DNA of 64,000 nucleotides from an uncultured bacterium (GTDB lineage: Bacteria; Chloroflexota; UBA5177; JANWHV01), in the NCBI GenBank assembly GCA_963827235.1, contig CAWHAE010000009.1, positions 544,001 through 608,000 on the forward strand, in the 5' to 3' direction. Under the pieces are notes generated by a model that saw only the letters and a list, made by a program, of their open reading frames with translations, ran no database searches and had not been told where the DNA came from. Below, one piece after another: positions 13,750-42,242 of this stretch; the stretch's first letter is position 1; each line of letters opens with the position of its first letter. A program made the translations under genes and the position numbers.

Positions 13750-15549
13750 ATGGCACACGACGATACACGAGGACGCCGCGGCTTCGAGAGCCGTGGCAGG
13801 CAGGACGACCGCCCCTACGGTGGCTTCCAGAAGCGAGAACGAGATACGCGGCCCGGCCAGCCTAGCTTTGGCGGCGACCAGCGCGAGCGCACACCGTGGC
13901 GCGGCGAGAGGGGCAGCGGCGGGTCCGATACGCGGCCGGGCCGCTCCGCTCGGCCTCCATTCGCGCGCGAGACCCGCGAAGAAGGCTGGACGCCCTTTCA
14001 CGGCCGCGGCGAGCGCGACGGCGAGAGACGACCCAGCGATGATCGCGGCTTCCGTCCGGCGCCCGAGGGCGAGCGGCCGCCCTTCCGCGAGCAGCAGCGC
14101 TACAATGAGCGGCCGCCTTTCCGCTCCGATCGCCCCTCCTCCTTCGAGAACAGAGGAGACAACGATCGCCCATGGCAGAGAGAGCGTCGTGACGAAGGTC
14201 GCCCGAGCTTTGCCGATCGCGGTCAGAGCTCCGGTCGCAACGAACGACCAACCTACCGGCAGGGTCGTGGAGGCTATCGCCCATTCGACCAGGACCTTCC
14301 GCATAGCGAGCGCCCACAGTCTTCCTACCGCGGCGACCGACCCTTCCAGGGCCGTAGAGATGAGGGCGACCGCGGCTTTCGTCGCCCAGACGGCGACCGC
14401 CCGGCCTACCAGGACCGGCGTCCCTCCTATAGCAGTGACCGCCCCTTCGAGCGGCGCGAGGCAGACGGGGCGCCGTTTGCCGATGCCGGGCGCCCGCTCG
14501 GCACCGTCACCAGGGCAGGACGTAGCCCGGTCAGCCAGTTCGAGCGCATTCAGGCAGACGTCTACGGTCGCTGGCCCGTCCTGGAGTCCCTGCGGGCCGG
14601 CAATGTGGCCAAGATCTACATTGCAGCGGGTGTGAGAGATTCCGCCGACCACCTGCAAGAGATTCAGGCGATTGCCGCGGAAAAGCATGTCACCATCGTG
14701 CGCGTGGACCGCTTCGATCTGGACCGCGTGCTCGGTAACGTCAATCATCAGGGGATAGCCGCTGCTTGCCGCCCATACCAGTACACGGACTTTGAGGACA
14801 TCGTCGCGGCCGCCGGAAAGTCGGCGGAGAAGCCGCTGATCGTGCTCTTCGACGGCGTGCAGGATCCGCAGAACGTGGGCTCGATTCTTCGCACCGGCGA
14901 GGCGGTAGGTATCGACGGCGCCGTGCTGCCCAAGCACAACCAAGCGGCCGTCACCCCGGCGGTCGTTCGAGCCTCCGCGGGGGCGGTCGAGCACCTGCCG
15001 GTGGCCGAAGTGTCGAATCTACGCCAGAGCATTGCCACTCTCAAGGAGGCCGGCTACTGGATCGTCGGTCTCGACATGGAGGGAGGCACCGACTACGACA
15101 ACTTCGACGTCGATAGTGCGCTCGCCTTGATCGTGGGCGGCGAAGGGCGCGGCTTGAGCCGGATGATCTCGGAAGAATGCGACTACCTCGTGCGGCTGCC
15201 GATGCGCGGCAAGGTGGGCAGCCTCAATGCGTCGGTCGCCGCCGGCATCGTGCTCTACGAAATCGCTCGCCGGCGTGGTACAGCCGGACTACCGAAGAGC
15301 AAGCCGGCTGTCGAAGATAGCGTCGACGTCGTAGAGATTGTGGAAGCGCTTGCCGGCGAGGATCTCGATCTGCAAGAGGAGCTCGAGGCGGCCATCGACG
15401 CCGGCGACGCGGAAGGGACGGAGTCTCTCGTATTTGAGGAGATCTTCGAGGACGAATCCGACGAGGAACCTGACGTCCCCGGCGATGAGGTCCTCGAAGA
15501 CCAGGAGCAGGACGCTACGGACAGCGCCGAGGAGAACGACCAGCCCTGA
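13750..15549 (+). CDS. rlmB: 23S rRNA (Gm2251) 2'-O-methyltransferase RlmB (TrmH family) with long disordered N- and C-terminal extensions
   Basis: Core VYGRWPVLE..NHQGI..DGVQDPQNVGSILRT..SAGAVEH..GGEGRG..SLNASVA; conserved position after cysS. Confidence 0.93.
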   Translation: MAHDDTRGRRGFESRGRQDDRPYGGFQKRERDTRPGQPSFGGDQRERTPWRGERGSGGSDTRPGRSARPPFARETREEGWTPFHGRGERDGERRPSDDRGFRPAPEGERPPFREQQRYNERPPFRSDRPSSFENRGDNDRPWQRERRDEGRPSFADRGQSSGRNERPTYRQGRGGYRPFDQDLPHSERPQSSYRGDRPFQGRRDEGDRGFRRPDGDRPAYQDRRPSYSSDRPFERREADGAPFADAGRPLGTVTRAGRSPVSQFERIQADVYGRWPVLESLRAGNVAKIYIAAGVRDSADHLQEIQAIAAEKHVTIVRVDRFDLDRVLGNVNHQGIAAACRPYQYTDFEDIVAAAGKSAEKPLIVLFDGVQDPQNVGSILRTGEAVGIDGAVLPKHNQAAVTPAVVRASAGAVEHLPVAEVSNLRQSIATLKEAGYWIVGLDMEGGTDYDNFDVDSALALIVGGEGRGLSRMISEECDYLVRLPMRGKVGSLNASVAAGIVLYEIARRRGTAGLPKSKPAVEDSVDVVEIVEALAGEDLDLQEELEAAIDAGDAEGTESLVFEEIFEDESDEEPDVPGDEVLEDQEQDATDSAEENDQP

Positions 15550-15657: not shown

Positions 15658-16227
15658 GTGACGAGAGAAGAAGCACTGGCCATCGTGCGAGAGTACATCC
15701 AGAATGAGGGCCTGGTCCGGCATTGCCTGGCCGTCGAAGCGGCTATGCGGGCCTATGCCACGAAGTACGAGGAAGACGTGGAATCGTGGGGCCTGGCAGG
15801 ACTGCTTCATGACTTCGATTGGGAGATCCATCCGTCCGCCGAATCCCATCCTCATATGGGTGCGCCCATTCTGCGCGAGCGCGGAGTGCCGGAGCCGATC
15901 ATCCAGTGCATCCTCACCCATGCCGATTACCTGGGCTATCAGCGCGTTACCCCCATGGAAAAGACCCTCTCGGCGGTCGACGAGCTGACGGGCATGATCA
16001 CGGCTGCAGCCCTGGTCAGGCCGACCAAGTCTCTGCATGACATCGAGGCTCCAGCCGTGCGCAAGAAGATGAAGGACAAGGCCTTCGCACGCCAGGTCAA
16101 TCGTGAGGAGATCGCGCGGGGTGCCGAAGAGCTGGGCATCGGTCTGGATGAACACATCGCGTTCGTGATCCAGGCGATGCGGTCCATAGCACCCGAGCTC
16201 GGCCTGGACGGATCGCTCGCCGTCTGA
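15658..16227 (+). CDS. HD/HDIG-domain protein
   Basis: LVRHCLAVE, GLLHDFD, AVDELTG, KKMKDKAFA; RBS GAGGAGGAG. Confidence 0.88.
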   Translation: MTREEALAIVREYIQNEGLVRHCLAVEAAMRAYATKYEEDVESWGLAGLLHDFDWEIHPSAESHPHMGAPILRERGVPEPIIQCILTHADYLGYQRVTPMEKTLSAVDELTGMITAAALVRPTKSLHDIEAPAVRKKMKDKAFARQVNREEIARGAEELGIGLDEHIAFVIQAMRSIAPELGLDGSLAV

Positions 16228-16229
16228 TG

Positions 16230-16585
16230 TTATCCCCGTCCCTACCTCGTATACGATCTATATCCAAGATATGTATGTAAAGATCGCCGTAGTGGTAGTA
16301 GAGGCGGGGAGAGAGGGGATAAGTACCGTGTCTCCAGAGAGAGCGGCTAGGCCGGCGACTGGGAGGAACTGTGGAGGAGCTGCGGACGAGATCGGGAGGA
16401 GCTGCGGATAAACCCGGATACCTCCCGGCACAGCTCCCCCGTCCGTCCGATTCATCCAGAACTTTCCCCAGAGGCGATCGGAATCACCCCCGGATTTGTC
16501 CGCCGCGGAGGCAGGATATCCGCAGGGAAAGCCCGGCTTTTCCACACCTCCCAGACTGCTCATGCGTGCTCGAGATTGTGGACAA
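16230..16585. other. Candidate replication origin (oriC-like): DUE, DnaA-trios and DnaA-box arrays
   Basis: AT-rich 16250-16284 (26/35 AT); TAG-TGG-TAG-TAG 16290-16301; tandem box-like 9-mers 16305-16322; 11-bp phased boxes 16370-16411; opposite-orientation boxes 16452-16546; TTGTCCACA on minus at 16577-16585. Confidence 0.65.
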
Positions 16586-17231
16586 TCAGCTGCTGCCACC
16601 ACTCGTTGAGCAGAGCGCAGGAGGCAAGGGCCCTTCCCGTCTCGGCATCGCCGTTGCGCCCGTGGCCGAAGTCGTTGACGAGTGCAACGGTCCAGCGCGG
16701 ATAGGGGCGATCGACGAGCAGGACAGGAAGCTGGGGCTGCAGCGATCCCTCCTGGAGGACGCGGCAGTACCAGCCCGTGCGGCCGGTCCTCGCTACCCGT
16801 GCCGTCAGTCCCTCGATGCCCCAACGGCGCTCGATTTTCCAGCACGGGTAGCGAGGACCGGTAACCTGGACACGCGCTTCGCCGAGCGCGTAAACATCGC
16901 CAATGCAGGCCGTCTCCTCGGAGAGGTCGTCGAGAGTGAGATTTTCGGCGAAGCCGCCCGGCCCCATCTCGGGCCGCCGCAGCTCTTCCCGCCAGAGCGG
17001 ATAGTGTTTCGCCGCGTAGAGCAGCACAGCCTGATGCGGCCGGCCGTGATTCTTCGTATCGGCCTGTACGTTGCCTTCCAGGTGCGTCGTGTAGAGCCAG
17101 CGTGGCCGCGGATCGGGCGTGCGAAAGAACGACGAGATCCACGGGCGGCCAGATTCCTCGGCGGCTGCCTGCTCGCCGTACTGCCGGGGCGCCCCTACCT
17201 GGAGGGCACTAATCACTCCTAGCTGCTGCAT
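16560..17231 (-). CDS. MOSC domain protein (YiiM-like, with 3-alpha domain)
   Basis: QADTKNHG, GFAENLT, PRYPCWK, TGWYCRVL. Confidence 0.9.
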   Translation of the reverse strand: MQQLGVISALQVGAPRQYGEQAAAEESGRPWISSFFRTPDPRPRWLYTTHLEGNVQADTKNHGRPHQAVLLYAAKHYPLWREELRRPEMGPGGFAENLTLDDLSEETACIGDVYALGEARVQVTGPRYPCWKIERRWGIEGLTARVARTGRTGWYCRVLQEGSLQPQLPVLLVDRPYPRWTVALVNDFGHGRNGDAETGRALASCALLNEWWQQLIVHNLEHA

Positions 17232-17257
17232 GTATGCTCCTCGTGGGCGAACGCGCG

Positions 17258-18439
17258 CTATCCTTCCTTGGTCGGAGGCACCGCTACCCAGCGCTCCTCG
17301 CGCGCGCTGCGCAGCAGGCTGTCGGCGATCACGTTCTCGCGATGGCCCGCGGCAAAGGTCGGGAAGTTCGGCTGGCGTCCGGAGGCGTAGCCACCGGCGC
17401 GGATGAACTCGAAGATAGCCCGCTGAATGGCCGTGTGAGAATCGGCAAACCCCTCGTCATGGCCGGCGGGGTAGCGGGCGACGGACTGTGCCGCCGGCTC
17501 GAGCAGGGCCGGATCCTTGATCAACACGCCATTGGCTCGCTCGCGGTAGCCGAGCCACAGCTCGTTCGGGCGCTCGGCGTCCCAGGCCAGAGATCCGCGA
17601 GAGCCATTGACCTCGATTGCCAGGTGGTTCTTGCGCCCCGCGGCCACCTGTGAGACCTGCATCGTGCCGTGGGCGCCACGGTCGAGCCGCAGCAGTACGG
17701 AGGCAGCGTCCTCGGTATCCATGGTTACCGGAGTGCGCTCTACGTCGGCCGTAGCGAAAGCCTGGACCGGTTTCGACGGCTTCTGGCGTACCGGAATGAA
17801 GGTGGCGAAGTCGGACATCACGCGCGTCACCGCCTGGCCGGTCAGAAACTGAGCGACGTCGAGCCAGTGCGATCCGATATCGCCCACCGCGCGGAGCATA
17901 CCTCCCTGGGCGCTTTCGACGCGCCAGTTGTAGTCGGTGTCCAGGAGCAGCCAGTCCTGCCAGTATCCGCCATGGACGCTGTACACGGTGCCGAGATCGC
18001 CTCGCTGAATCAGAGCGCGGGCATGCTGGACAAGGGGGTAGAAGCGAACGTTGAAGAGCACGGCATGGACGAGCCCGCTGGCTTCGGCCAGGGCAAGCAG
18101 CTCGGCGGATTCCGTGCTGTTCATGCCCAGCGGCTTGTCGCACACCACGTGCTTGCCCGCCGCCAGCGCGGCCTTGGCGGCCGGGTAATGCGTGGCGTTG
18201 GGTGAGGCGATGTCTATCACGTCGACGTCCGGGTCGGCAATCATCTCGAGGTAGTTCCCGTAGGCACGGGGCACGAACAGATCCGCGGCCTTGCGGACGG
18301 CCGATTCCTGCGACGAGCCGGCCAGGGCGACGATCTCCACGAAACCGAGACGCCGCATCGACTCGATATGAGCAGGACCGATGAAGCCTGCGCCTATGAT
18401 GCCGACGCGAATGGGGAGCCGAGAAGCACTGGCTGCCAT
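17258..18439 (-). CDS. Gfo/Idh/MocA oxidoreductase
   Basis: GIIGAGFIG, SPNATH, CDKPL, DIGSHW; ATG 18439 with GGAGG RBS preferred over the ORF-track start. Confidence 0.9.
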   Translation of the reverse strand: MAASASRLPIRVGIIGAGFIGPAHIESMRRLGFVEIVALAGSSQESAVRKAADLFVPRAYGNYLEMIADPDVDVIDIASPNATHYPAAKAALAAGKHVVCDKPLGMNSTESAELLALAEASGLVHAVLFNVRFYPLVQHARALIQRGDLGTVYSVHGGYWQDWLLLDTDYNWRVESAQGGMLRAVGDIGSHWLDVAQFLTGQAVTRVMSDFATFIPVRQKPSKPVQAFATADVERTPVTMDTEDAASVLLRLDRGAHGTMQVSQVAAGRKNHLAIEVNGSRGSLAWDAERPNELWLGYRERANGVLIKDPALLEPAAQSVARYPAGHDEGFADSHTAIQRAIFEFIRAGGYASGRQPNFPTFAAGHRENVIADSLLRSAREERWVAVPPTKEG

Positions 18440-18687
18440 AGAAGTACCTCCAGGGGAGACACAACAATTACTCATGCGGGACCGTCTGTGCTTCAACGTA
18501 GCAAAATACGCCGCACTGATGCACGGTGCAGGTACCGCCCCCGCCTCCCCAGGAGGGTGCATCGCGTACCATGAGTTGTGTTCTGTGCGCTCTGCGCGTC
18601 CGCATCCGGTACGCTCAGATAAGTCTCCAGGAGACGGCGCGAGCAGGGAGACGATAGAGGTATTGGGTCGGTGAGAAATGCAATCCG

Positions 18688-20133
18688 GTGACTGAGCCCC
18701 TTTTTGCCGGCGTCGACCTCGGCACGGCGAGGGTGAAAGTAGGTATCTTCGACGCCGCGGGCAGGCAGCACGCACTGCGCATTCTGCCGCACGCGGGACT
18801 GCTGACGGCGGAGCGCGGCGAAGTCGTGCAAGATGCCGCGCTGTGGTGGCGCGCCGTCTGCAAGGCCTTGCGGGCGGTCTGCGCCGAGGTCGACCTGGCG
18901 GCGATCAAGGCAATCGCGGTCAGCGGGCAGGGCCCCACGCTGGTCACTACCGATGCCCGGCTCCATCCACGCGGCCCGGCGCTCACCTGGATGGACAAGG
19001 ATAGCGCGAGCGAGGAAGCCGCGCTGCTGGGCAAGCAAATCGGCCGCGCGGTCGACCCGGGCCATCTCATTGCCAAGGCGCTGTACCTCAATCGCGTCGA
19101 TCCGGACCCGCATCGCTGCTGGTATTTCCAAGCCTGGGACTATATCGGCGCGCGGCTGTGCGGGGTGCCGCATGCTTCGGCCGCCTGGTTTGACGACGAG
19201 CTGAGCGCCTCCGGATTGCCGCGCGATCAGTTCCCACCGTACGTGCCGCCGGGAAGCGTGATCGGCGCCGTGAGCGACGAAGCGTCGGACGTCTGCGGCA
19301 TGCCGCCGGGGATACCCGTGGTGTCGGGCACCAACGATAGCATTGCCTCCTGTATCGGCAGCGGCCTCACGGAGAGAGGCGATGCGGTGATTCTCGGCGG
19401 CACCTCGGGCGGCTTCGTGCTCTGCTGGGATTCGGTGCCGGGGGCCTGGGCGCCGCCGCCCAACACCTACCCGGAGCCGCCGGGGCGCCGCTATCTCGGC
19501 GCGACCATTTCGTCCAGCGGCCTGGCCCTGGATTGGCTGGCCTCGATCCTTGGCGCTCACGACCTGGAGACGCTGCTCGTGCATGCCGCGGACGTGCCCG
19601 CGGGGAGCGACGGTCTCCTGCTCCTGCCCTACATTGCCGGCCTCTTTCTGCCGTATACCACCGACGAGCGGGCGCCGCTCGCGGACCCCTGGGCCCGCGG
19701 CGTGTTCTTCGGCCTGCGGGCGGCCCACGGGAGATCGCACCTGGTGCGCGCGGTGCTGGAGGGAGTCGCCCTGGCCATACGCCAGGTACGCGACGTGACC
19801 GTCGCCCAGGGCGGAGAGTGCACGGCCACGCTGACCGTGGGCGGGCAGGCGCATAGCAGGCTCTGGAACGAGATCAAGGCAGCAGTGCTGGGCGTTCCCT
19901 TGCTGGTGCCCGAAGTGATCGAAGCCGGCGCCCTCGGCTCGGCCTGCCTGGCAGCCACGGGAAGCGGCTACTATCCCGACGTGTGGACGGCCGCGCGGCA
20001 CATGGTGCACGTGGCCGTCAGGCTGGAGCCCGACCCCACAATGCAGGAGCGGTACGATCGCCTCTACAGAGACGTCTTCCTACCCCTCTACCCGCGCGTG
20101 AGAGACCTATTCCCTCGCCATAGCGCTCTATAG
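18688..20133 (+). CDS. FGGY-family carbohydrate kinase (xylulokinase-like)
   Basis: GVDLGT, SGQG, WMD, GTND, GGTSG, ERAP, RAVLEGV, GGQA. Confidence 0.88.
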   Translation: MTEPLFAGVDLGTARVKVGIFDAAGRQHALRILPHAGLLTAERGEVVQDAALWWRAVCKALRAVCAEVDLAAIKAIAVSGQGPTLVTTDARLHPRGPALTWMDKDSASEEAALLGKQIGRAVDPGHLIAKALYLNRVDPDPHRCWYFQAWDYIGARLCGVPHASAAWFDDELSASGLPRDQFPPYVPPGSVIGAVSDEASDVCGMPPGIPVVSGTNDSIASCIGSGLTERGDAVILGGTSGGFVLCWDSVPGAWAPPPNTYPEPPGRRYLGATISSSGLALDWLASILGAHDLETLLVHAADVPAGSDGLLLLPYIAGLFLPYTTDERAPLADPWARGVFFGLRAAHGRSHLVRAVLEGVALAIRQVRDVTVAQGGECTATLTVGGQAHSRLWNEIKAAVLGVPLLVPEVIEAGALGSACLAATGSGYYPDVWTAARHMVHVAVRLEPDPTMQERYDRLYRDVFLPLYPRVRDLFPRHSAL

Positions 20134-20810: not shown

Positions 20811-21015
20811 TAGGCGGCTATAGGTAGGGGTAGAATGCCTACCCTAGGGTGCGCAGAGCTGCTCCACCAGCGGCTTGGCAGCGCCATGGGCCAAATACAG
20901 CCGGCCCAGCCCTCATGCTCCTGCGAGCCCGCGGCGCGGAGCATGCCAAGTCCACCCCTGAAAGGACCGTGGCGACTGCCCCGTGGCCGCGCGCCGGCAC
21001 GCGAAGGGGCGTATA

Positions 21016-21031
21016 CGTTTCACGTGGAACG
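21016..21031. promoter_or_regulatory. parS-like site
   Basis: CGTTTCACGTGGAACG matches the core of the parS consensus TGTTNCACGTGAAACA; intergenic; palindrome extends to TACGTTTCACGTGGAACGTA. Confidence 0.75.
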
Positions 21032-21131
21032 TAGAGCACCCCAGGAGGCGAGTCACGTTGTACTATTGGAGGTGACCAAGCGTCATGATATAGTTGATGC
21101 GATTCTCATGCACGTGGCAGAAGGAGGGCTC

Positions 21132-21590
21132 ATGGCTGCCCGTATCCTCGTGGTCGACGACGACGAGCTGATTTGCGATCTGGTAAGTGAGACCCTGAAC
21201 TTCGAGGGCTACGACGTCGAGGCCGCATACAGTGGCGAGCAAGCTCTCAAGCGGCTGGAGACGAGCAAGCCGGATCTGATACTGCTGGATATCATGATGT
21301 CCGGCATCGACGGCTTTGAAGTCTGCCGCAGGGTGCTGAACAACGAGGCGACCAGGTACATCCCAATCATCTTCCTGACTGCAAAGGGCCAGTTCGAGGA
21401 TGAGCTGCGTGGCTATGAAGAGGGCGCCTTCGACTACATTACGAAGCCGTTCCATCCCCTGAGCCTGGCACCGACCATCAGGGAGACACTGGAGGCGCAG
21501 GGACAAAGCGAGCTGGAAGGAAAGCGGCAGAACAGAATCGAGAAGTTGCGCAGCCTGCTCAATCTGCGAGGCAGCACCGAAGCCAGCTAG
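21132..21590 (+). CDS. Single-domain response regulator
   Basis: ILVVDDD, PDLILLDIMM, IIFLTA, DYITKPF; RBS AAGGAGG before ATG 21132. Confidence 0.92.
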   Translation: MAARILVVDDDELICDLVSETLNFEGYDVEAAYSGEQALKRLETSKPDLILLDIMMSGIDGFEVCRRVLNNEATRYIPIIFLTAKGQFEDELRGYEEGAFDYITKPFHPLSLAPTIRETLEAQGQSELEGKRQNRIEKLRSLLNLRGSTEAS

Positions 21591-31842: not shown

Positions 31843-34800
31843 CTAGAGGCCCAGAGCCGCCGCGACCGGGTAGGTGCCCTGGTCGGCGGTGACGACCTTG
31901 TAGCCGTTCTGGTTGGACAGGGACAGAGCGACGAAGGCCTCGCTCGAGCCGCTATAGCTGGGCACGACCTGGAAGATGCCGCCGACGGCACCCGACAGCG
32001 ACGCCGCATCAGTATTCACGTTGACCGTGGTGATGCTGTTGGCGGCGACGGTGTAGGACTTGACGACGGTCTTGCTGGCGGAGGCGAAGATGCCCCGGAC
32101 CGTGATGGTCGTGGTGCCAGGATTGTACAGGTAGACGGTCTGGCTGACCGTGGAGGTGCCGTTGGTGAGATCCAGGTAGGGGAAGGCCACTTCGGTGAGA
32201 CCGGCCGGCGCGCCGGACGGATTCTCAGCCGCGTACGTGCCGCCACTGGCCGGGTTGCCACCGTAGTAGGTCGGCCGCTCGACGAAGATCGGGCGGTCGG
32301 AGGTGACGACGGTGGAGAAGACACCGGACTGGGTCTGCACGACGTCGTTGACCGCGATGGACTCGCGGGAGGCGGCGTCGACCTGCACCTGCTGGGAATT
32401 GATCGGATTGCCGCTGGCGTCGAGGAAGAAGACGGTCACCGTGGCGCTGGCGCTCCCTGCGGAGGCCGGGTTGATGATGTCGACTTCGGAGACGTCAGAG
32501 CCGGTGCCGGCGGTGCCACCGCTGCTGGGCCAGGTGCCCGTGTCGGCGGCGAAGATGTACTGGAGGTTGGTGGAGGAAGCGGCAGGCTTGGTGGAAGCAC
32601 CATACTTGCCGGAACCGATGCCGTCCCCGTAGTACTCCACGCGCTCGGCAGCGACCGGCACGTTGCTGGAGAGGGAGAGACCGAACTCGGAGAAGCCCTT
32701 GCTCACGAGGTCCTTGCGAATCGGCTCAGTGAGGCGGGAGTTGGCCGGGACGCTGAGCGAGATGGGCGTGACCGTGGGCGCGGCGGTGGAGCTGACCACC
32801 GTCTGGGGCAGCACGTTGACCGTGATGGTGGCCGCGGTGCTGTTCGGGTTGAGGATGGTCAGGTACTCCTCGTTGGTGAGCATGATGTCACCGGAGGCGA
32901 GGTAGTAGCTGAAGGGGCCGGTGGCGCCCAGGTTGAGCTGCTGGCCGAGGCTGCTGGAGCTGTCCAGAGCGGTACCGGCGGCGGTGGTGCGGGCGATGAT
33001 GCGGGTGGCGGCGAGCGGAGCAGGAGAGCTCACCTCGGCGGCCACGGAGACACCGTTGCCCACGTCCTTGTTGACCGATTCCTCGACGACCGAGTCGGCA
33101 CCGATGGAGCCGGCCACGGTGGAGACCGTGCTGGCAGCAGCCGGCGTGCTCGACGAAGTAGGTCACGGTATAGGTGGTGGCGTAGTTGTTGGCGTTGAGG
33201 ATAGACAGCGTCTCCGCGAAGTTGGCCCCGCGCCACCGGAAGTCTGGCCCGTGTAGCCTTCCGCGAAGTAGATGCTCGAGGCGCCGGCGACCGGTCCACC
33301 GGCCGCGATGGTGAACGGTACGGCACCCACGCGACCGGTCGTGGTGCCCCTGGCCGCCAGGTTGTACCGGCCGCCGGCAATCAGCGCGCCCGTGGCGGAC
33401 TTGATCGTGAAGATGCCGAAGATGGCACCGTTCGAGTCGGCGGTGAACACCTGGGCGGTGCCGGGCACATCCATGCCGGCTAGACCGGAGGAGGTGTACT
33501 GCAGGCTCACGCTGACCGACTCACCGGGACCGAAGTCGGTGCCGCTGATCACCGTGGTACCGCCGACCGGCGCCGCGCTCAGCGAGCTGGTGAAGGTGGC
33601 CGGGGTGGAGTTGACCACCGTGAGATTGCAGACGCGCTGTTGCTGAGCACTGCCGCCGCCCGCCACGTAGGCGGTGACGGCGAGCGTGTAGCCGCCGGGG
33701 GCAGTGCCGGGCGGGACCGTGAAGGTGGCGGTCAGGTTGCCGCCGGCGTCGACCGTCACGGCTATGGGACCCAGGGGCGCGGGCGCAAAGCCGATCGCCA
33801 TGCTGTTGCTGCCGCTGGCGCCCTGGGGGGCAACGGCGAACTGGGTGCCAGTGAGGATGACCACCTGGCCGGGTACGAGGTTCGACGCCGGGCAGCTCAA
33901 TACGCCGCCGGCGCTCGTGCCGGCAACGACCTCCACCGGCGCCAGGTTGCTCGACATGCCGCCGGCATAGACGTAGTAGCCGGAGGGCAGCGCGAGGGCG
34001 TTCGGAGCGGTGCCGGCCGGTCCGGAGAGGTTGCCCTGGCCGTCGGCGTACAGCGTGCCGGCCTGGAGCGACGACCCGGCAGAGGACGGGCTCTGAGTGG
34101 ACCGGTAGTAGAAATTCACCGCCTCTCCGGCCCAGAAACCGTGACCGGCGAGGGCGAGACCGGCTCCGTTGTCCAGGACGGTCGCCGTGATCACCGGCCT
34201 GGAGATGGTGAAGGCTGCCGTCTGTGACATCGCTCCGTCGGGCCCCGTGCCGCTTACGTCGACCGTCAGGCTGCCCGCCGGCTGCAGTCCGCAGGCGCTG
34301 GGCACGGTGAAGCTGCCGCGCGCCGTGCCGGCCGTGTCTATCTGGACAGTGGGAAGCGAGACGAGGCGCTGGTGTCCGGCGACGAGAGGGCCGGTGGCCG
34401 TGCCGTCCGTCGTGCCGTCGTCGCAGGAACCGCCGGTGAGGGAGACGTGCACGTAGTTGCTCGCGGTGGCGCTGCTGGGCGTGTAGCCGGTAGCAGTGAA
34501 GCTCACGGTCTGGCTCACCACGGCCTGATCCAGGATGTAGCTGCCGCCGGGCAGGGAGGTGGAAAGCACCAGCTTGCCGCTGCTGGCGGCAGAGCCGATG
34601 GTCACGCTGCCGAGAGCGCCCTCGTTCAGGCGTTCGCCGGTGCCGGGCGTCGCCGCTGACGGCGCCCAGTCCTCGGCCAGGATGTGCGCCGCACCGGAAG
34701 CGACGTTGCCGTTCAGGACCGCCCCGGCATCGGTGAAGCCGCCGTCGCCGTCTGTTGCCGCGTCGCCCAGGTAACAGGCGCCGGCAGCAACGCCGCTTGG

Positions 34801-36021
34801 CGGCGGCGGCGTGATCTGCCCGACGTATTCGGTCGTCGCGTAAGTATCGGGCGTGGAGGAGGTGGCGCTTGCTGCCTCGTGCGAGCCGGGCTGCACCTGG
34901 CAAGCTCCGCTGCCGCTCTCGTCGATGGCCCAGAAGTCGACGGTTGCATTGGCGGCAAAGCCGGAGCCGCTGACCAATACGGTGCCGCTGGGGCCGGCGA
35001 TGCCGTCGCCGACCACGGTGATAGACGACACGGTGTGGTCGAGCTTCACGCCGGCCGCCGCCAGCACGGTCGGCTTGACGGCAGAGCTGCTGACCACGGC
35101 GACGATGGTGTAGATCTGGTCGAAGAGCGCACCGGAGCTGACGACGTCCGAGCCCGGCGAGGCAAGCTGCAGGCGCGCGTCGAGGTAGCCGCCGGCGCTG
35201 GGCGCCACGCAGGCCGGCTGCAGGCCGGCGCTGGTCAGTGTACAGTTGCTGCCGTTCGAGCTCGCCGGCGGCACCACCTGCAGCGGTATGGCGGTGAGGG
35301 CCCCTCCGGCTCCCAGCCCGTAGTCGCCGGCGCCGGCAACGGGAGGCGTGCTCGTCGCGCCAAACGCACGCGGGTCCTGGGCGAAGTTCATGAGATCGAA
35401 GCTGATCGGGTCGCCGGCATAGTTGCCGGACACGCTGAAGGAGACGTTGAACTGGCCGCCCAGCGGGATCACCCCGCCGTTGCTCACGGTGAGCGAGCTG
35501 GTCGCCGCGACGGCGCCCACCGTAAAGGTGGCGCCGGCCGTCGTGGCGCTGCCGCCGTCGTACGCGGTCACCCTGTAGACGCCGGGCGCGGCAGTGGACG
35601 GCAGCGTGAACGTCTGCGCGGGTAGCTGTCCGCCCGCACCGATGGTGGACGAGGCAACGGCAACCACCATGGCGTTCTGCAGGAAGCAGGTCGTGCCCGA
35701 CAGGCAGATAGCAGGATTCTCGACGTTGTCGCCCTGTGCGAACACGGCGCTCGTTCCCACGTGGGAGCCGGCATTCGACGGATTGGGCGCGTTCAGGCTG
35801 ATGGTGACCAAGCTGGAGCTCGACGACGAATAGGTGAAGCCGCTGCCGTCGACCGTGAGCGTGCCGCCGGGCGCCACCGTCGCGGGAGAAAGACTGATCG
35901 ACGGCACAGCCGCGGCGCCGGCCGCGGGCACGGAGCCGATCAGCGCCAGGAGTTGCACGACAACTACGAGCAGCCCGATACACAGCACGGCAACCCACCG
36001 CCGGGCCGAGATCGCGAGCAT
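31843..36021 (-). CDS. Large secreted Thr/Ser/Gly-rich surface protein A (Ig-like repeats plus C-terminal YFAEGYTG/DUF5719-like domains), interrupted by two compensating indels
   Basis: ORFs 33163-36021 and 31843-33117 are in the same frame; comparison with paralog B shows a -1 at ~33226-33229 and a +1 at ~33141; N-terminal signal peptide; would be 1392 aa if restored. Confidence 0.8.
31866..33280. repeat. ~1.4-kb direct repeat, copy 1 (3' end of surface protein A)
   Basis: Nearly identical to 36293-37707 (offset 4427). Confidence 0.95.
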
Positions 36022-36181
36022 GCTATCCCCCTCCGCTCACAGCTCACCATCTACTCTACCAGAGAGCGGGCACGGCAAGCCATGGATGCGTGCGCAACCC
36101 GCCTAACCTGCCTCGTGGCCTCCGCGTGGTACCTCCAGCTGCGAGGATGGCAGGGGCGGGGGACTGCAGCCTCCAGTACAG

Positions 36182-36251
36182 ACCGAGGCCCCGACCAGGA
36201 TTGCTCCCGGTCGGGGCCTCGGTGGGAAGCGGCGGTTAGCCGCCGCTTCCC
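36182..36251 (-). terminator. Tandem GC hairpins after surface protein B
   Basis: ACCGAGGCCCCGACC..GGTCGGGGCCTCGGT and GGGAAGCGGCGG..CCGCCGCTTCCC directly after the stop codon. Confidence 0.65.
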
Positions 36252-36269
36252 GGGACCGAGCCTACGCGA

Positions 36270-39200
36270 TTACAGGCCGAGAGAGGCCGCGATCGGGTAG
36301 GTGCCCTGGTCACCAGTGACGACCTTGTAGCCGTTCTGGTTGGACAGGGACAGAGCGACGAAGGCCTCGCTCGAGCCGCTATAGCTGGGCACGACCTGGA
36401 AGATGCCGCCGACGGCACCCGACAGCGACGCCGCATCAGTATTCACGTTGACCGTGGTGATGCTGTTGGCGGCGACGGTGTAGGACTTGACGACGGTCTT
36501 GCTGGCGGAGGCGAAGATGCCCCGGACCGTGATGGTCGTGGTGCCAGGATTGTACAGGTAGACGGTCTGGCTGACCGTGGAGGTGCCGTTGGTGAGATCC
36601 AGGTAGGGGAAGGCCACTTCGGTGAGACCGGCCGGCGCGCCGGACGGATTCTCAGTCGCGTATGTGCCGCCACTGGCCGGGTTGCCACCGTAGTAGGTCG
36701 GCCGCTCGACGAAGATCGGGCGGTCGGAGGTGACGACGGTGGAGAAGACACCGGACTGGGTCTGCACGACGTCGTTGACCGCGATGGACTCGCGGGAGGC
36801 GGCGTCGACCTGCACCTGCTGGGAATTGATCGGATTGCCGCTGGCGTCGAGGAAGAAGACGGTCACCGTGGCGCTGGCGCTCCCTGCGGAGGCCGGGTTG
36901 ATGATGTCGACTTCGGAGACGTCAGAGCCGGTGCCGGCGGTGCCACCGCTGCTGGGCCAGGTGCCCGTGTCGGCGGCAAAGATGTACTGGAGGTTGGTGG
37001 AGGAAGCGGCAGGCTTGGTGGAAGCACCATACTTGCCGGAACCGATGCCGTCCCCGTAGTACTCCACGCGCTCGGCAGCGACCGGCACGTTGCTGGAGAG
37101 GGAGAGACCGAACTCGGAGAAGCCCTTGCTCACGAGGTCCTTGCGAATCGGCTCAGTGAGGCGGGAGTTAGCCGGGACGCTGAGCGAGATGGGCGTGACC
37201 GTGGGCGCGGCGGTGGAGCTGACCACCGTCTGGGGCAGCACGTTGACCGTGATGGTGGCCGCGGTGCTGTTCGGGTTGAGGATGGTCAGATACTCCTCGT
37301 TGGTGAGCATGATGTCACCGGAGGCGAAGTAGTAGCTGAAGGGGCCGGTGGCGCCCAGGTTGAGCTGCTGGCCGAGGCTGCTGGAGCTGTCCAGAGCGGT
37401 ACCGGCGGCGGTGGTGCGGGCGATGATGCGGGTGGCGGCGAGCGGAGCAGGAGAGCTCACCTCGGCGGCCACGGAGACACCGTTGCCCACGTCCTTGTTG
37501 ACCGATTCCTCGACGACCGAGTCGGCACCGATGGAGCCGGTCACGGTGGAGACCGTGCTGGCAGAAGCGGCGTGCTCGACGAAGTAGGTCACGGTGTAGG
37601 TGGTGGTGTAGTTATTGGCGTTGAGGATGGACAGCGTCTCCGCGAAGTTGGCACCCGCGCCGCCAGAAGTCTGGCCCGTGTAGCCTTCCGCGAAGTAGAT
37701 GCTCGAGCTCACGCCGGTCGGGCTGGTGGCCGTCACGATGAACGGGTTAACCGATCCGCTCAGCGAGGAGGCACCGGTGGCCACGAGGACGTAGGTGCCG
37801 GGTACCAGCGCGCTGGCGGTGGACTTCACCGTGTAGGTCGTGCTGATCGCACCGGTCGCGCTGGCGGTGGTCGTCTGGGCAGTGCCGGGGACGGCGCTGC
37901 CGGCGAGGCCGCTGGCGCTGTAATCGATGGCGATCGTCACGGTCTCATTCGGAGCGAAGCCGCTGCCGGTGACCGCGGTGGTGTTGCCGAGCGCTACCGT
38001 GCTCGGGTTGGCGCTCAGCGACACGACCGTACCGGTCACGACGTTGACGGTGAGGAAGCGCTGCTGTTGCGTCGACACGCCGGGCACGTAGGCGTTGGCG
38101 GTCAGCGTGTAGGTGCCGGAGATCGTGCCGGTGGGCACGGTGAACGTGGCCGACATGTTGCCGGCTGCGTCGACCGTCATCGGCACAGCCGAGACCACCG
38201 TGGGCGAGAAGTTGATGCCCAGCGTGTTGGTGCTGCCGCCGGTCGGCGGGGCCAGGAACTGGGTACCGGTCACGGTGACCGTCTCGCCGGGTACCAGGGT
38301 CGGCAGCGGGGTGATGTTGCCGCCCACGCTATAGCCGACGGCCGCGGTGGCCGTAAAGCCACTGCTCGTGCCGCTGGCCTCGATGTAGTAGTAGCCGGTG
38401 CTCAGGCCGCTGGGCGCGGCGGCGGTGCCGGTGATGGTACCGTCTGCACCCGCGGTGACCACGGACAGAGCCGTGCCGGCCGTACCGGTGGAGACCGTGG
38501 AGAACAGCTGCAGGACCACCGTCTCGCCGGCCTCGAAGCCCGTGCCGGTGAAGGTGATCGTGGTGCCGTTCGTGTTAGCGGTGATGGTCGTGCTGGGGAT
38601 GGTGATCGTCGCCGTCAGGCTCTGCGAGGAGCCGGAAGCGGCGGTGCCGGTCAGGGTCAGCGTTACGCTGGTGCCGCCCACCAGGCTACAGCCCGTCGGT
38701 ACGGTGAACGAGCCGTGCACCGTGCCGGTGGTGTCGATCAGCGTCTGCCCGAGCGGATAGCTCGAGAGACCGCAGAGCGTGCCGCCGGTGAGGGTGGCGT
38801 AAACCGGCGAGGTAGCGGTGCTGGCCAGGAAGCCGGTCGCCGTGTACGTCACCGTCTGGTCGACCGCCGGTGTGGTGGTCGAGAGGGTGAAGGCGCCGGT
38901 CGAGGTCGCGGTGGAGCTCACGAGCACGGACGTGTAGGCCGACTCGTTGATCCGATGGCCCACTTCCGCGGTGCCGGTGGCGCCGAGATCGATGGCCAGG
39001 ATCTTGCCGCCGCTGTAGCCGTTGTTCGTGGTGCTCGAGGGCAGGGTCAGGCTAACGCCCGAGAAGGTGCCGCCCGGCGTGCCGTTGGTCGTGGGACCAT
39101 CGGACGCAGTCGCGGAGCCCAGGAAGCAGACAGCCGCGTCGCCCTCGTAAGAGATATCGGCGCTGGAAATGGTCGTGCCCGTAAGGGCGCCTCCGGCCGT

Positions 39201-41330
39201 GGAGTATACGGGCGACAGACAATCTGTGTACCCGGTGCCGCCGCCGCCGAGCTGATCCACGAAGTAGAACAGGACGGTAGAGCCGGCGCTCCAGTTGTAG
39301 CCGGAGACGGACACCGTGGAGCCCACGGCGACCAGTGTGCTGCTCACGTTCACGGTAGAGAGCGTATGGTCGATCTTGATGCCGTTCTCCGCGGCAGTCG
39401 AGCCGACCGTGGTCGTCGTGGTGCCCGTCAGCGGGCTGCCGGCGTCGCTCACCGCAGACAGCACGTCAGTAGTGGGCGTACCAGTGAAGCTCACCACGTA
39501 GGTGACCGGCGAAACGCCGGCAGTCACGGTCGCGGTGCCGCCGCCGCCGATGGCAGCGAGGAGGTTGTTGAGGTCGGTCGCAACCGTCGTGGTCGACGCA
39601 TTGTACGCCACGCCGGAGACAGTGACCTTGGAGCCGCCGGTCGGCGTGATCGAGATGTCATACGTGCCGCCGGTCGCGTTGATGGTCACGGGGTATCCGG
39701 TGGCTGTCGTCGTTGTCGCCGTGCCCACGGGGATATTCGGCACCAATGCGGCGGTGGTGCTGCTGGCACCGGCCGTCGTGGCGGCCGCGTCTCCAGCGGT
39801 ACCCGTGCCGATCATGGTAAAGATGTACGGCGACGCGACTGTGCCGGCCCCGGTCACGCTGAGGTCGGTGCCGGTCACAATAGCGTTAGTAGCGCCGGCC
39901 GAGGCTCGGAGCGAGGCCTGTATGGTCGCCGCCGAGGTGCCGAGGGGGATGGCGGTGTCGACGATCGCATTACCCTGCCCGGCAGTGGTGTTGCTGATCG
40001 TAATGTCGAAGTCACCGCTGCCGGCGTTGATGACCACGGAGGCAGGGCTGGCCCCACCGGCCGGGGTGACGGTCACGCCGGCTGCGAGCGGAACCGTCCC
40101 GTCGGATGCTGCCGTCAGCACGTCCGTGGCGTCGGCCGTGGTGCCTGTGCCGACGAACGTGACATTGTAGGTAACCGGGGCGGTGCCGGCGGTGACGGTG
40201 ACGTCAGTGCCGGTGCCCAGTGCCTTGGTCGTGCCGGCAAGGCCCTGCAGATCCGTTTGCACTGTGCCGAACGCCGTGCCGACCGGGATACCCGCGGTGG
40301 TCACGGCGGTGCCGTTGGTGCCGGAGATCGTCAGGTCAAAGTCGCCGGTCTTGGCGTTGACGGTGACGGGGTACGTGGTGCTCGTGGTCGACGAGGTTAC
40401 CGCGCCGACGGTGATCGAGCCGCCGGTCACGCTGGTGGCATACTGCGCCACGACCGCGTACACCTGGTCATAGAACAAGCTGGACAGCAGTGGCAGCGCG
40501 GTGCCGGTCGGGGAAGCCAGCATGAGCGTGGCGTTCACCGCCGTGGACGAAGCGCCAAGCTGACAGGTATTGTTGGTCAGCGTAGCGCTGCTGCCGCAGC
40601 TGACAATCAGAAGCGGTTCCTTTGCCAGCGTCGCGGCAGCGCCTGTCGGCGTGCCGGTGCTCTGGCCGAGTCCGCTGGCCACGGTCGCGCTGGCAGTGCC
40701 GGCGCCGGCCGTCATGGCGAAGTTCTCCAGCGCGAAGGTCACGGCGGTGCCCGCCGTGAAGCCGCTATAGAAGGCGCTGAATTCCTGGCCGAGCGACAGG
40801 CTCTGGGAGCCGGTGCTGCCGTTGATCGCCAGCCCGTTGTTGCCGCTCGTCACGGTGAAATGGGTCGTGCCGTAGTCGCCGGTCGCGGCGGGGCCAGCGG
40901 CACTGACGCCGTAGATGCCCGGAACGGCGGTCGTCGGGATGGTGAAGTCGGAGTCCGTCAGGCTGCCGCTGCTATTGGCGACGACAGTTTCCTGCAAGAC
41001 GTTGGCATAGCCCGCGGGCAGGTAGCCCAGATATCCGGCGCCGTACTCCGCGGTGTCGCCGTTGTGGGCGGCATCGATGGTGCTGTAATGGTTCGTAGCG
41101 GAGGCGCCGTAGGGCGCGTTCACCGTGATGGTGATGGACTCGCCCGACGAGGCCCCGGAGACGGTCACCGAGAGGGTGCCGCCGGCTGCCACCGACGACG
41201 TCGCGGTGACGCTGAAGGTGAGGGAGGCGTGCGCCGAAGGCGTGGCCCCCATCAGCCCGGTCAGCTGCGCCGCGAAGAGCGTCGGCACCAGGGCCAGAGC
41301 AAGAAGACTCTTGCGATGGGTCTTCAACAT
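36270..41330 (-). CDS. Large secreted Thr/Ser/Gly-rich surface protein B (S-layer-like candidate, 1686 aa)
   Basis: ATG 41330 with GGAG RBS; signal peptide MLKTHRKSLLALALVP..AHA; repeated G.GF..GE.V Ig-like motifs; C-terminal YFAEGYTG domains. Confidence 0.88.
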   Translation of the reverse strand: MLKTHRKSLLALALVPTLFAAQLTGLMGATPSAHASLTFSVTATSSVAAGGTLSVTVSGASSGESITITVNAPYGASATNHYSTIDAAHNGDTAEYGAGYLGYLPAGYANVLQETVVANSSGSLTDSDFTIPTTAVPGIYGVSAAGPAATGDYGTTHFTVTSGNNGLAINGSTGSQSLSLGQEFSAFYSGFTAGTAVTFALENFAMTAGAGTASATVASGLGQSTGTPTGAAATLAKEPLLIVSCGSSATLTNNTCQLGASSTAVNATLMLASPTGTALPLLSSLFYDQVYAVVAQYATSVTGGSITVGAVTSSTTSTTYPVTVNAKTGDFDLTISGTNGTAVTTAGIPVGTAFGTVQTDLQGLAGTTKALGTGTDVTVTAGTAPVTYNVTFVGTGTTADATDVLTAASDGTVPLAAGVTVTPAGGASPASVVINAGSGDFDITISNTTAGQGNAIVDTAIPLGTSAATIQASLRASAGATNAIVTGTDLSVTGAGTVASPYIFTMIGTGTAGDAAATTAGASSTTAALVPNIPVGTATTTTATGYPVTINATGGTYDISITPTGGSKVTVSGVAYNASTTTVATDLNNLLAAIGGGGTATVTAGVSPVTYVVSFTGTPTTDVLSAVSDAGSPLTGTTTTTVGSTAAENGIKIDHTLSTVNVSSTLVAVGSTVSVSGYNWSAGSTVLFYFVDQLGGGGTGYTDCLSPVYSTAGGALTGTTISSADISYEGDAAVCFLGSATASDGPTTNGTPGGTFSGVSLTLPSSTTNNGYSGGKILAIDLGATGTAEVGHRINESAYTSVLVSSTATSTGAFTLSTTTPAVDQTVTYTATGFLASTATSPVYATLTGGTLCGLSSYPLGQTLIDTTGTVHGSFTVPTGCSLVGGTSVTLTLTGTAASGSSQSLTATITIPSTTITANTNGTTITFTGTGFEAGETVVLQLFSTVSTGTAGTALSVVTAGADGTITGTAAAPSGLSTGYYYIEASGTSSGFTATAAVGYSVGGNITPLPTLVPGETVTVTGTQFLAPPTGGSTNTLGINFSPTVVSAVPMTVDAAGNMSATFTVPTGTISGTYTLTANAYVPGVSTQQQRFLTVNVVTGTVVSLSANPSTVALGNTTAVTGSGFAPNETVTIAIDYSASGLAGSAVPGTAQTTTASATGAISTTYTVKSTASALVPGTYVLVATGASSLSGSVNPFIVTATSPTGVSSSIYFAEGYTGQTSGGAGANFAETLSILNANNYTTTYTVTYFVEHAASASTVSTVTGSIGADSVVEESVNKDVGNGVSVAAEVSSPAPLAATRIIARTTAAGTALDSSSSLGQQLNLGATGPFSYYFASGDIMLTNEEYLTILNPNSTAATITVNVLPQTVVSSTAAPTVTPISLSVPANSRLTEPIRKDLVSKGFSEFGLSLSSNVPVAAERVEYYGDGIGSGKYGASTKPAASSTNLQYIFAADTGTWPSSGGTAGTGSDVSEVDIINPASAGSASATVTVFFLDASGNPINSQQVQVDAASRESIAVNDVVQTQSGVFSTVVTSDRPIFVERPTYYGGNPASGGTYATENPSGAPAGLTEVAFPYLDLTNGTSTVSQTVYLYNPGTTTITVRGIFASASKTVVKSYTVAANSITTVNVNTDAASLSGAVGGIFQVVPSYSGSSEAFVALSLSNQNGYKVVTGDQGTYPIAASLGL
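36293..37707. repeat. ~1.4-kb direct repeat, copy 2 (3' end of surface protein B)
   Basis: Nearly identical to 31866-33280. Confidence 0.95.
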
Positions 41331-42242
41331 GCTTATCTCCAAATGAATAGGTGGTTCGGGAGCCGGACACTCATTGTCTTTCGACCTGTGCGATGTCACC
41401 ATCGGATGAGTATCCGGATTCTGGCGTCTCTGCCGTGGGCGATGCCGGCTGCCGTGCGGCCCGGTTGGAAGGACACTGGACCAGAGGCCCTGCACGGCCC
41501 CGCGCACTCTCCGGCGCGCCAGGGGATCATGGACGAACGTAGCTCACTCGGTGTGTAACCCCGGGAAACGAACCGCTCAGAGCATTGACTCGTACCGAGC
41601 CTGCGCGGCCCTTCAATCCGGAGCTACCTTCATCACCCCCTTTCCCACGTGGAATACTCTCGCGCAGTCATGGTGGGCGCCTCGCCCGTTCGGTCCTCCT
41701 CCGGTCTCTCCCGTTTCTTGCCGGCACGGGCATGCAATCCCGGCCAAATCAGGGCTGAATCGGGTTCCACCGGACAGTCTAGCATCTTGCATGTCGCGGT
41801 GCCCGCCGAATGTGGCCACCGGCGGCTCCATTTGTGTAATGCGCCGGGCGGCAAAAGGATACGCCCGCAGAGCGCGTTTACAATCAATTTACAGATGACA
41901 GTTTGATGATCCTTATATATAGGGGCACATATAGGGGCGACTTTTGGGAGGGGGCGAGATGTTGTGGAGGCCCGTCCAGGCAAAGCGGGGACAAGCCCGT
42001 AACGTTGAGGGCCCTTGAAGCGTTACACTTACGGAGCAGGCAGTATGCTTCGCCCTGCCTCTTGTACTGTTGTCTCCTGGAGATGCCTTGCCCGGCTGCT
42101 GTGGCTGATCCACGACGAGGCGCGGCCCCGGGGGAGCTTACAGGTACAGTTGGCGAGGCGATAGTTACGAGGGGTTGTCTCGCGGTGGAGGCGACCGCCG
42201 GCCAGGCCGTCACGAACCGCGACGAGGCCCTGAAGGAAAGGT

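Follow-up and report, generated by a model that had tools for sequence, protein, structure and literature searches.

A candidate chromosomal replication origin away from dnaA in an uncultured genus of Chloroflexota

We analyzed a stretch of 64,000 nucleotides (the window; G000:C9:544001-608000, that is, contig 9 of genome G000) from an uncultured bacterium of the phylum Chloroflexota. The subject of this report is an element located in an intergenic gap of 332 bp within this window (positions 16228-16559, 59% GC). Based on its DnaA boxes and their surroundings, the element had been predicted to be the chromosomal origin of replication, oriC. Our analysis suggests that it is probably the oriC of a Chloroflexota genus, lying away from both full-length dnaA genes. 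The assembly comprises 7,984,468 bases in 21 contigs, with 65% GC, 95.9% completeness and 9.06% contamination. Comparisons within the genus were made among five genomes (G000-G004) and those within the class among 21 species genomes from three families. Six distinct sequences of the element were aligned, five from the genus genomes and one from a metagenome contig (L094); another one, L011 from a named collection, is identical to that of G003. Pairwise identity among the six sequences was 42-61%, except for G003 and G004 with 84%. Literature on Chloroflexi, Chloroflexota and Anaerolineae origins, DnaA boxes, GC skew and dnaA paralogues yielded no description of the present origin or of the DnaA paralogues reported below, and the per-phylum predictions of the basal unwinding system (BUS) supplementing PMC8287927 may include Chloroflexota.

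An array of DnaA boxes, trios and an AT-rich stretch between convergent genes

The gap is bounded on the left by a plus-strand gene of 189 amino acids (15658..16227) matching Pfam HD and NCBIfam HDIG, which is the conserved left neighbor of the element, and on the right by a minus-strand MOSC gene ending at 16560. The two genes are thus convergent, as predicted. We scored DnaA boxes by their mismatches to TTATCCACA in the plus reading or to TGTGGATAA in the opposite reading. Every 9-mer named in the original prediction was recovered, as were the trinucleotide run and the stretch with 26 A+T in 35 nucleotides. The boxes are indeed relaxed, with no perfect TTATCCACA in the element, and at the seventh consensus position most of them have G or C (TTATCCCCA or TTATCCGCA types).

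Reading from left to right, a box-like 9-mer, TTATCCCCG (16230..16238, plus strand, two mismatches), is located just 3' of the HD stop codon and is weakly conserved, with 1 of 9 columns invariant in the six sequences. It is followed by an 18-mer, CTACCTCGTATACGATCT (16242..16259), which marks the left edge of the AT-rich stretch and is identical in G000, G001 and G002, with CTACC retained in G003 and G004. The best 35-mer of the AT-rich stretch (16250..16284) is a candidate DNA-unwinding element. Next comes a plus-strand run of DnaA-trio-like trinucleotides, TAG TGG TAG TAG (16290..16301), in which the two box-proximal trios fit the consensus, the third has a central G, and 9 of 12 columns are invariant. 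A G-rich spacer of 3 nt, AGG (16302..16304), leads from the trios to a tandem of co-oriented minus-strand boxes (16305..16322; minus reading TTATCCCCT-CTCTCCCCG). The weak member of this tandem, CGGGGAGAG at 16305 (four mismatches, 5 of 9 columns invariant), abuts the strong member, AGGGGATAA at 16314 (two mismatches, 7 of 9 columns invariant), and its matching GTGGA is retained in the relatives. A CCAGAG motif with 5 of 6 positions invariant is found 11 bp to the right of the strong box (16334..16339). The conservation of this motif and of the 18-mer is explained by neither DnaA boxes nor trios.

The right-hand part of the element consists of two opposed groups of boxes. The first is an 11-bp phased array of four co-oriented 9-mers on the minus strand (16370..16411), comprising TGTGGAGGA at 16370 (two mismatches), TGCGGACGA at 16381 (three), TCGGGAGGA at 16392 (four) and TGCGGATAA at 16403 (one). 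The predicted phasing was recovered independently in the form of a direct-repeat family with spacings of 11 and 11. The second is a set of five 9-mers on the plus strand (16452..16546), comprising TCATCCAGA at 16452 (two mismatches), CTTTCCCCA at 16462 (three), TTGTCCGCC at 16496 (three), ATATCCGCA at 16516 (two) and TTTTCCACA at 16538 (one). A further 9-mer, TGTGGACAA (16577..16585, minus strand, one mismatch), is located inside the 3' end of the MOSC gene; it is specific to G000 and possibly due to chance, the MOSC gene being absent from this place in the relatives.

The layout is unique in the genome and conserved throughout the genus

Box matches in G000 comprise 9 perfect, 405 one-mismatch and 7,461 two-mismatch occurrences, and the density and context of boxes were compared across the genome. 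With 8 boxes of at most two mismatches per 400 bp, the element is second to one other place, C19:133.5k, which has 10; on none of the other six contigs listed does the count exceed 5. Stretches of 35 nucleotides with at least 26 A+T occupy 910 of the 7,984,468 positions. There are 21 sites in the genome at which a box of at most two mismatches is followed by CTACTA within 16 nt. Among these, the element alone has an adjoining AT-rich stretch (26 A+T, versus at most 21) and it has 10 boxes within 400 bp on either side, versus at most 3 at the others. In addition, the 13-mer GTAGTGGTAGTAG occurs a single time in the genome. The features of the element exceed what is expected by chance.

The same layout was detected in the relatives. 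When 41 genomes (G000 and 40 relatives) were searched at the DNA level, the gap was matched in G001 (71% over 346 nt) and G002 (80% over 98 nt), with one additional chance-like match of 27 nt. In a pattern search, GTAGTAG-N8-16-GGATAA was found downstream of the orthologous HD gene in all five genus genomes and in L094. Elsewhere, the pattern had one further G000 match, on C14, and its matches outside the genus resembled those of reversed-pattern controls. The HD orthologues preceding the element are 72-86% identical in G001-G004 and 75% identical in L094. Conservation of the layout in relatives, which had been proposed as a check of the original prediction, was borne out in 5/5 genus genomes and in the metagenome contig.

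Conservation within the gap is concentrated on the predicted sites. Invariant columns account for 56 of the 120 box and trio positions versus 22 of the 206 positions in the rest of the gap (Fisher odds ratio 7.3, p = 8e-13, a value that overstates the case because alignment columns and sequences are not independent). All six sequences share CGTAGTAG, the GTGGA of the weak box, the GGATAA of the strong box, CTGTGGA, a TGGGGATAA-type box and two right-hand boxes. These right-hand boxes have 7 of 9 and 6 of 9 invariant columns and are perfect TTATCCACA in G002, G003 and G004. Similarly, the position of the strong box at 16314 is occupied by TGGGGATAA, with one mismatch, in G001 and G002. The relatives also carry close arrays of boxes in the same direction, spaced by 9-11, and the 45 nt to the left of the trios remain at 51-71% A+T in all six sequences while the letters drift. 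A sequence-only covariance model of the core, run against the 21 class genomes, gave 85-92 bits in the five genus genomes. Outside the genus there was one weak match, in G009 (24.6 bits, E = 5e-5), the others (E 0.05-0.7) being coding sequence. The weak G009 match (L233, G009:C30, 1440-1700) is found in a different gene context, where convergent genes for a HAD hydrolase and an NHL-repeat protein flank a gap of 424 bp. In common with the element it has CTACCTCGT and CCAGAG, and TTTCGAC-type repeats take the place of canonical boxes; we regard it as a lead and not as evidence.

The right-hand neighbor of the element differs among the genomes. In G001, G003 and G004 a plus-strand gene of the FGGY kinase family directly follows the element; in G001 its product shares 86% identity with that of window 18688-20133. 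In G000, about 2.1 kb have been inserted right after the last box. This G000-specific insertion (16560..18775) carries the MOSC gene and a gene for a GFO/IDH/MocA oxidoreductase (Pfam), both on the minus strand, and separates the element from the FGGY kinase gene, leaving the element whole and still beside the HD gene. Both G000 neighbor genes end at the element and therefore promoter control of a neighbor cannot explain it.

Likeness to known origins and unwinding systems

Several parts of the element resemble the BUS of B. subtilis (Richardson 2016/2019; Pelliciari 2021, PMC8287927; Pelliciari 2023, PMC10721633), namely the adjacent co-oriented boxes, the short G/C-rich gap, the box-proximal 5'-TAG-3' trios and the AT-rich stretch. 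In contrast to the B. subtilis system, the element has two A-centered trios only, has its weak box nearest the trios and does not lie between dnaA and dnaN. The search rule described in PMC8287927 comprises a box with at most two mismatches, an optional second box with at most four, a box-to-trio distance of 0-16 bp, most often 13, and three or more consecutive NAN trios. The strong box at 16314 (AGGGGATAA) and the adjoining one at 16305 (CGGGGAGAG) fall within these limits with their two and four mismatches. So does the spacing: the strong box is 12 bp away from the last trio in G000 and 11-13 bp away in G001-G004. The trios are likewise followed by AT-rich sequence (26/35 at 16250-16284). 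The orientation is also that of C. difficile, for which PMC7561715 describes the order boxes, GC cluster, CTA-type run and DNA-unwinding element.

A cluster of several boxes, as found at oriC, is present as well (8 boxes of at most two mismatches per 400 bp, with footprints of conservation on the boxes). E. coli oriC has low-affinity sites in close phase flanked by stronger anchor boxes, and the element is similar in this respect. Like E. coli oriC (NC_000913.3), it is distant from dnaA and located between unrelated genes, and it has an AT-rich end followed by a box in the TGTGGATAA reading and, at the far end, TTATCCACA in the opposite orientation. The two differ in their neighbors (mnmG and mioC in E. 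coli, the HDIG gene and the FGGY kinase gene here), in the number of GATC sites, of which there are only 4 in the 332 bp of the gap, and in the prevalence of TTATCCCCA and TTATCCGCA types among the present boxes. Within the same phylum, Ktedonobacteria have DnaA-dependent chromosomes whose origins were predicted from skew extrema and Ori-Finder, according to PMC13289182. The genus departs from the arrangement described there, since dnaA (C16:621k and C12:11k), dnaN (C16:168k) and the parB homologues are all found away from the element. Location next to dnaA or dnaN, which is typical of oriC and not obligatory, is thus lacking.

dnaA paralogues and further clusters of DnaA boxes

The window contains no dnaA, as had been noted, and the dnaA-family genes of G000 were found on C16, C12 and C19. 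Two of them (C16:620708-622144 and C12:10537-12000) are full-length and share 60% identity, each encoding the DnaA_N, ATPase and C-terminal DNA-binding domains. Two others encode paralogues of 352 residues (C19:133907-134965 and C12:1629226-1630284) that are 51% identical to each other and lack the N-terminal domain, having kept the ATPase and DNA-binding domains. At least two DnaA-domain matches (E <= 1e-20) were found in 19/21 class genomes. Class tallies here and below include G018; without it 19/21 becomes 18/20 and the 15/21 given below becomes 14/20, and no specific claim rests on that genome. A mixed bin was considered as the source of the two dnaA genes and rejected, given that cysS and rlmB gave no second match in the genome and that the sole other match of rho is 52% identical over a partial length.

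No box cluster was found at either full-length dnaA or at dnaN (C16:168k): within several kb there were no boxes of at most one mismatch except one inside the C12 gene. The neighborhoods of these genes reach at most 3 boxes of up to two mismatches per 400 bp and at most 21-23 A+T per 35 nucleotides. Clusters were found next to the truncated paralogues. The one with the most and strongest boxes in the genome, which we call cluster C (C19:133.55-133.84k), is located 60-350 nt upstream of the truncated dnaA paralogue on C19. Similarly, co-oriented and mostly strong boxes, three of them with at most one mismatch, are found at C12:1628970-1629110, immediately upstream of the second truncated paralogue.

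Another cluster, cluster B, is located at the 3' end of trmD (C9:1138040-1138110; G001:C8:206890-206970) and has a three-box core (> < <) in 5/5 genus genomes. Clusters B and C are 4-5 kb apart in G003 and G004. Cluster B was tried as an origin and rejected, because its AT-rich part and a NAN run are present in G000 and G001 and not in G002-G004, and because the G000 skew is positive on both sides. It resembles a DARS-type site, and is closer to the datA and DARS kind than the element in the window is. Finally, three phased GGGGATAA-type repeats before mraZ (C9:1189530-1189570; G001:C8:808300-808340) score as boxes and presumably constitute the MraZ operator, which calls for caution with box-density scans in G000.

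Strand asymmetry and parS-like sites

For skew analysis, genes were called crudely (longest open reading frames with a codon-usage score) and the coding-strand effect was removed from third-position G-C skew. Raw GC skew is weak in G000. On C9, corrected values stay below zero as far as about 450 kb, remain close to zero until about 800 kb and are positive from there on. C9 is the sole large contig with a minus-to-plus switch and provides the only clear V-shaped trough in the assembly. On C16 (1.22 Mb, with dnaA in mid-contig) and C18 the corrected skew is negative throughout, and there is no switch at the C16 dnaA. The cumulative minimum on C9 was found at 451 kb; its bootstrap 95% interval, 378-748 kb, takes in the element at 560.2-560.6 kb. 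A two-level fit placed the best change point at 569.6 kb. In an 800-kb region of G001:C8 around the homologous site (438.1 kb), the best single change point is at 449 kb, 11 kb away. The polarity assumed here, with a G-rich leading strand, is weakly backed by a dif-like intergenic site at C14:92306, with two mismatches to the dif core, where raw GC skew turns from plus to minus. An octamer strand skew trained on C16 and C18 gave noise, the best |z| being 4.8 among tens of thousands of words.

A parS-like palindrome, CGTTTCACGTGGAACG (21016..21031; C9:565017), was found to the right of the element. GTTTCACGTGGAAC lies 2.9 kb to the right of the element in G001 and 4.5 kb to the right in G000, the 16-mer being identical in the two genomes. 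It stands out as a sharp conserved island from flanks that cannot be aligned, and about 25 nt downstream of it begins a conserved promoter-like block of a response-regulator gene. The pattern GTTTCAYGTGRAAC was matched in 15/21 class genomes and its reversed control in none, and the sister families carry the perfect palindrome GTTTCACGTGAAAC, which is the class-typical form. G000 has three matches to GTTTCAYGTGRAAC, located at C9:565017, C10:142500 and C12:344643; the last of these is 10 kb from a parB homologue, and C9 has no parB homologue. In eight sister-family genomes, no canonical box cluster was found within 10 kb of parS. The C9 site may be an origin-proximal centromere or simply an operator, and we give it small weight. 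The response-regulator open reading frame as called (20835-21590) is probably too long, since the receiver domain begins at residue ~100-104 and conservation with G001 begins at an ATG near 21133. With a start at ~21133, the reading frame would be separated from the divergent MerR-family gene by ~370 bp.

Weighing the element as the chromosomal origin

The unique layout, the footprint in six sequences and the absence of a better box cluster at dnaA and dnaN were all observed directly and support the proposal that the element is oriC, which we consider probable. Several observations count against this proposal. The first concerns the trios. The original prediction spoke of a full basal-unwinding layout; this holds for the boxes, the spacer and the AT-rich stretch and is overstated with respect to the trios, of which two are A-centered versus the three required. 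The run reads TAG TAG TGG TAG in G000-G002, TAG TAG CCG in G003 and G004 and TAG TAG TCG TAG in L094, counted from the boxes. The trio part of the search rule, (.A.){3,}, failed in all six sequences, which have only two consecutive A-centered trios, and no register or spacer of 0-16 gives three. According to PMC10721633, trios 1-3 are essential in B. subtilis, and it is the amino group of the central adenine that is read, with cytosine substituting better than guanine or thymine, which is unfavorable to a central G. The same study states that BUS architecture could vary among bacteria.

The second group of observations concerns strand asymmetry. The skew signal on C9 is weak and coarse (~370 kb), and its change point at 569.6 kb is probably driven by the strong local skew of a giant-gene island (window 32-42 kb). 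The genes of this island (31843-41507) are very large (up to 1745 amino acids) and located on the minus strand, with a GC skew of 0.13-0.16 that distorts local skew analysis. On the left arm in G001, the corrected skew is positive at 38-238 kb, which is the wrong sign, strongly negative at 263-313 kb and near zero at 313-438 kb. The G001 skew is ambiguous because of many rearrangements between the two genomes, and on balance we let it weigh on neither side: positions 420-631 kb of G001 are collinear with 543-830 kb of C9, an inversion affects the 105 kb immediately to the left of the site, and parts of the G000 right arm sit on the left in G001. GC skew, which was to serve as a check of the original prediction, therefore gave a mixed answer, with a C9 trough interval (378-748 kb) that contains the site, a coarse resolution and an ambiguous congener.

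The direction of the surrounding genes had already been raised as an objection, and the genes do face the element, with rho, cysS and rlmB on the plus strand to its left and purB and ispG on the minus strand to its right. This objection carries little weight because the genome shows no co-orientation bias, the plus-strand fraction of genes being 0.46-0.53 on all large contigs, including those with a single skew sign. A survey of HD-gene loci gave no case of the element beyond the genus: it was present at 1/80 genome-contig loci (L011), 1/80 metagenome loci (L094) and in 0/5 sister-family genomes. Among the 80 genome-contig loci, L011 had three boxes of at most one mismatch downstream and four others had two, and among the 80 metagenome loci L094 was the sole close relative. 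In the sister families, no box cluster was found at 5 HD loci, and one of 5 trmD loci reached two boxes with at most one mismatch. With regard to partitioning, the two better parS-like sites of G000 are on other contigs, one of them 10 kb from a parB gene, and the site on C9 may instead be a transcription-factor operator. Lastly, cluster C has more and stronger boxes than the element and, in G001, a local skew trough 25-50 kb away.

Should the element be oriC, DnaA would be expected to bind it, unwind it and start replication there. We envisage that DnaA would occupy the stronger boxes that end the two opposed arrays, those at 16403 and 16314 on one side and those at 16516 and 16538 on the other, and would then fill the phased low-affinity sites between them. 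From the tandem pair at 16305-16322, a filament of ATP-DnaA could extend onto the strand with the 5'-TAG-3' trios (16290-16301) and open the adjoining AT-rich stretch (~16250-16284) for helicase loading.

Alternative explanations

An alternative that we regard as unlikely, and as the best of those considered, is that the element binds DnaA and is no origin. It could serve as a site for titration or nucleotide-state control of the datA/DARS type, or as a DnaA-controlled region, with the origin elsewhere or unassembled. The genus retains at least three separate DnaA-box clusters, not all of which can be origins, and the origin could fall at a contig break in an assembly of 21 contigs that is 95.9% complete. 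The unmet trio rule also fits this explanation, as does the location of the right-hand boxes in the relatives, just upstream of the FGGY kinase start; in G000, however, no gene starts beside the element. Like the element, datA and DARS of E. coli are groups of DnaA boxes at a distance from dnaA, and they are not known to have an unwinding element or trios. The element has both and conserves them, and an AT-rich stretch with a trio run 11-13 bp from tandem boxes would be unexpected for a titration site. Moreover, this composite layout was found at the element alone within the genome.

Improbable in our view, if still the main rival as an origin, is cluster C, which would represent an ancestral arrangement beside a dnaA paralogue, in this case the truncated one, with the element acting as an accessory DnaA site. 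Cluster C has the highest box density in the genome, with 10 boxes of at most two mismatches per 400 bp, of which three have at most one mismatch and two of these are perfect. Its conservation extends to G001, G003 and G004, where it again precedes the orthologous gene; in G002, which is 83% complete, the query used did not find the gene. The corrected skew of G001 is negative over the 125 kb to the left of cluster C (918.9 kb) and mixed to positive to the right, with a cumulative minimum at 943-968 kb; this trough, however, coincides with a synteny break and not with the cluster, and there is no skew switch at 133 kb on C19 in G000. The boxes of cluster C all point in one direction and end about 90 nt before the start codon, as in an autoregulated promoter. 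The cluster lacks a trio run as well as an AT-rich stretch, with at most 21-22 A+T per 35 nucleotides in the three relatives. We read cluster C as an autoregulated promoter or a titration array.

Last, it is very improbable that the element is unrelated to DnaA and represents a gene for a small RNA, an array of sites for a different DNA-binding protein or a chance resemblance in a G-rich spacer: most 9-mers differ from the consensus at 2-4 positions, G-rich repeats such as the mraZ operator likewise score as boxes and the conservation of CCAGAG and the 18-mer lacks an explanation, yet conservation is concentrated on the box columns, the same positions in the relatives hold perfect or one-mismatch TTATCCACA or TGGGGATAA, the gap has no promoter-like site, the single terminator-like hairpin falls outside it, no Rfam 15 family reached its gathering score there (the sole match with E <= 1 being a microRNA model with 28 bits versus a cut-off of 60 bits), and the consensus fold of the six sequences is of -6 kcal/mol with a covariation term of -0.36 and 6 pairs that are almost all invariant.

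Implications

Taken as the oriC of the genus, the element would provide a concrete and conserved origin for uncultured Chloroflexota in which dnaA, dnaN and parB offer no positional clue, and annotation of the origin as the region next to dnaA would fail for such genomes. It would also constitute a natural test of the minimum number of consensus trios, with two present in each of the six sequences and the next trio centered on G or C. By itself, the element is of an ordinary type: many phyla are known to have origins at a distance from dnaA and predicted unwinding modules. The set of DnaA paralogues with its extra box clusters, which we have surveyed only, is the more unusual side of the biology of this locus and lends itself to the question of how a single chromosome is shared among several members of the DnaA family.

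One speculative idea, which we hold to be doubtful, is that initiation in this lineage relies on a multi-member DnaA system uncoupled from the origin, with two full-length paralogues, one or two truncated ones and three conserved box clusters. The G/C-shifted low-affinity boxes and the two-trio module might then be read by one paralogue only, and the truncated form might act as a competitor or as a filament cap. If true, the regulation of bacterial initiation would here follow a new logic.

Minor observations in the window

Two further features of the window were noted apart from the element. The RlmB-type methyltransferase encoded at 13750-15549 has 599 amino acids, with known domains from residue ~270 and an N-terminal extension without a Pfam or NCBIfam match. 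The giant-gene block contains internal and tandem duplications; for example, 31843-33117 and ~36273-37544 encode proteins with 98.6% identity.

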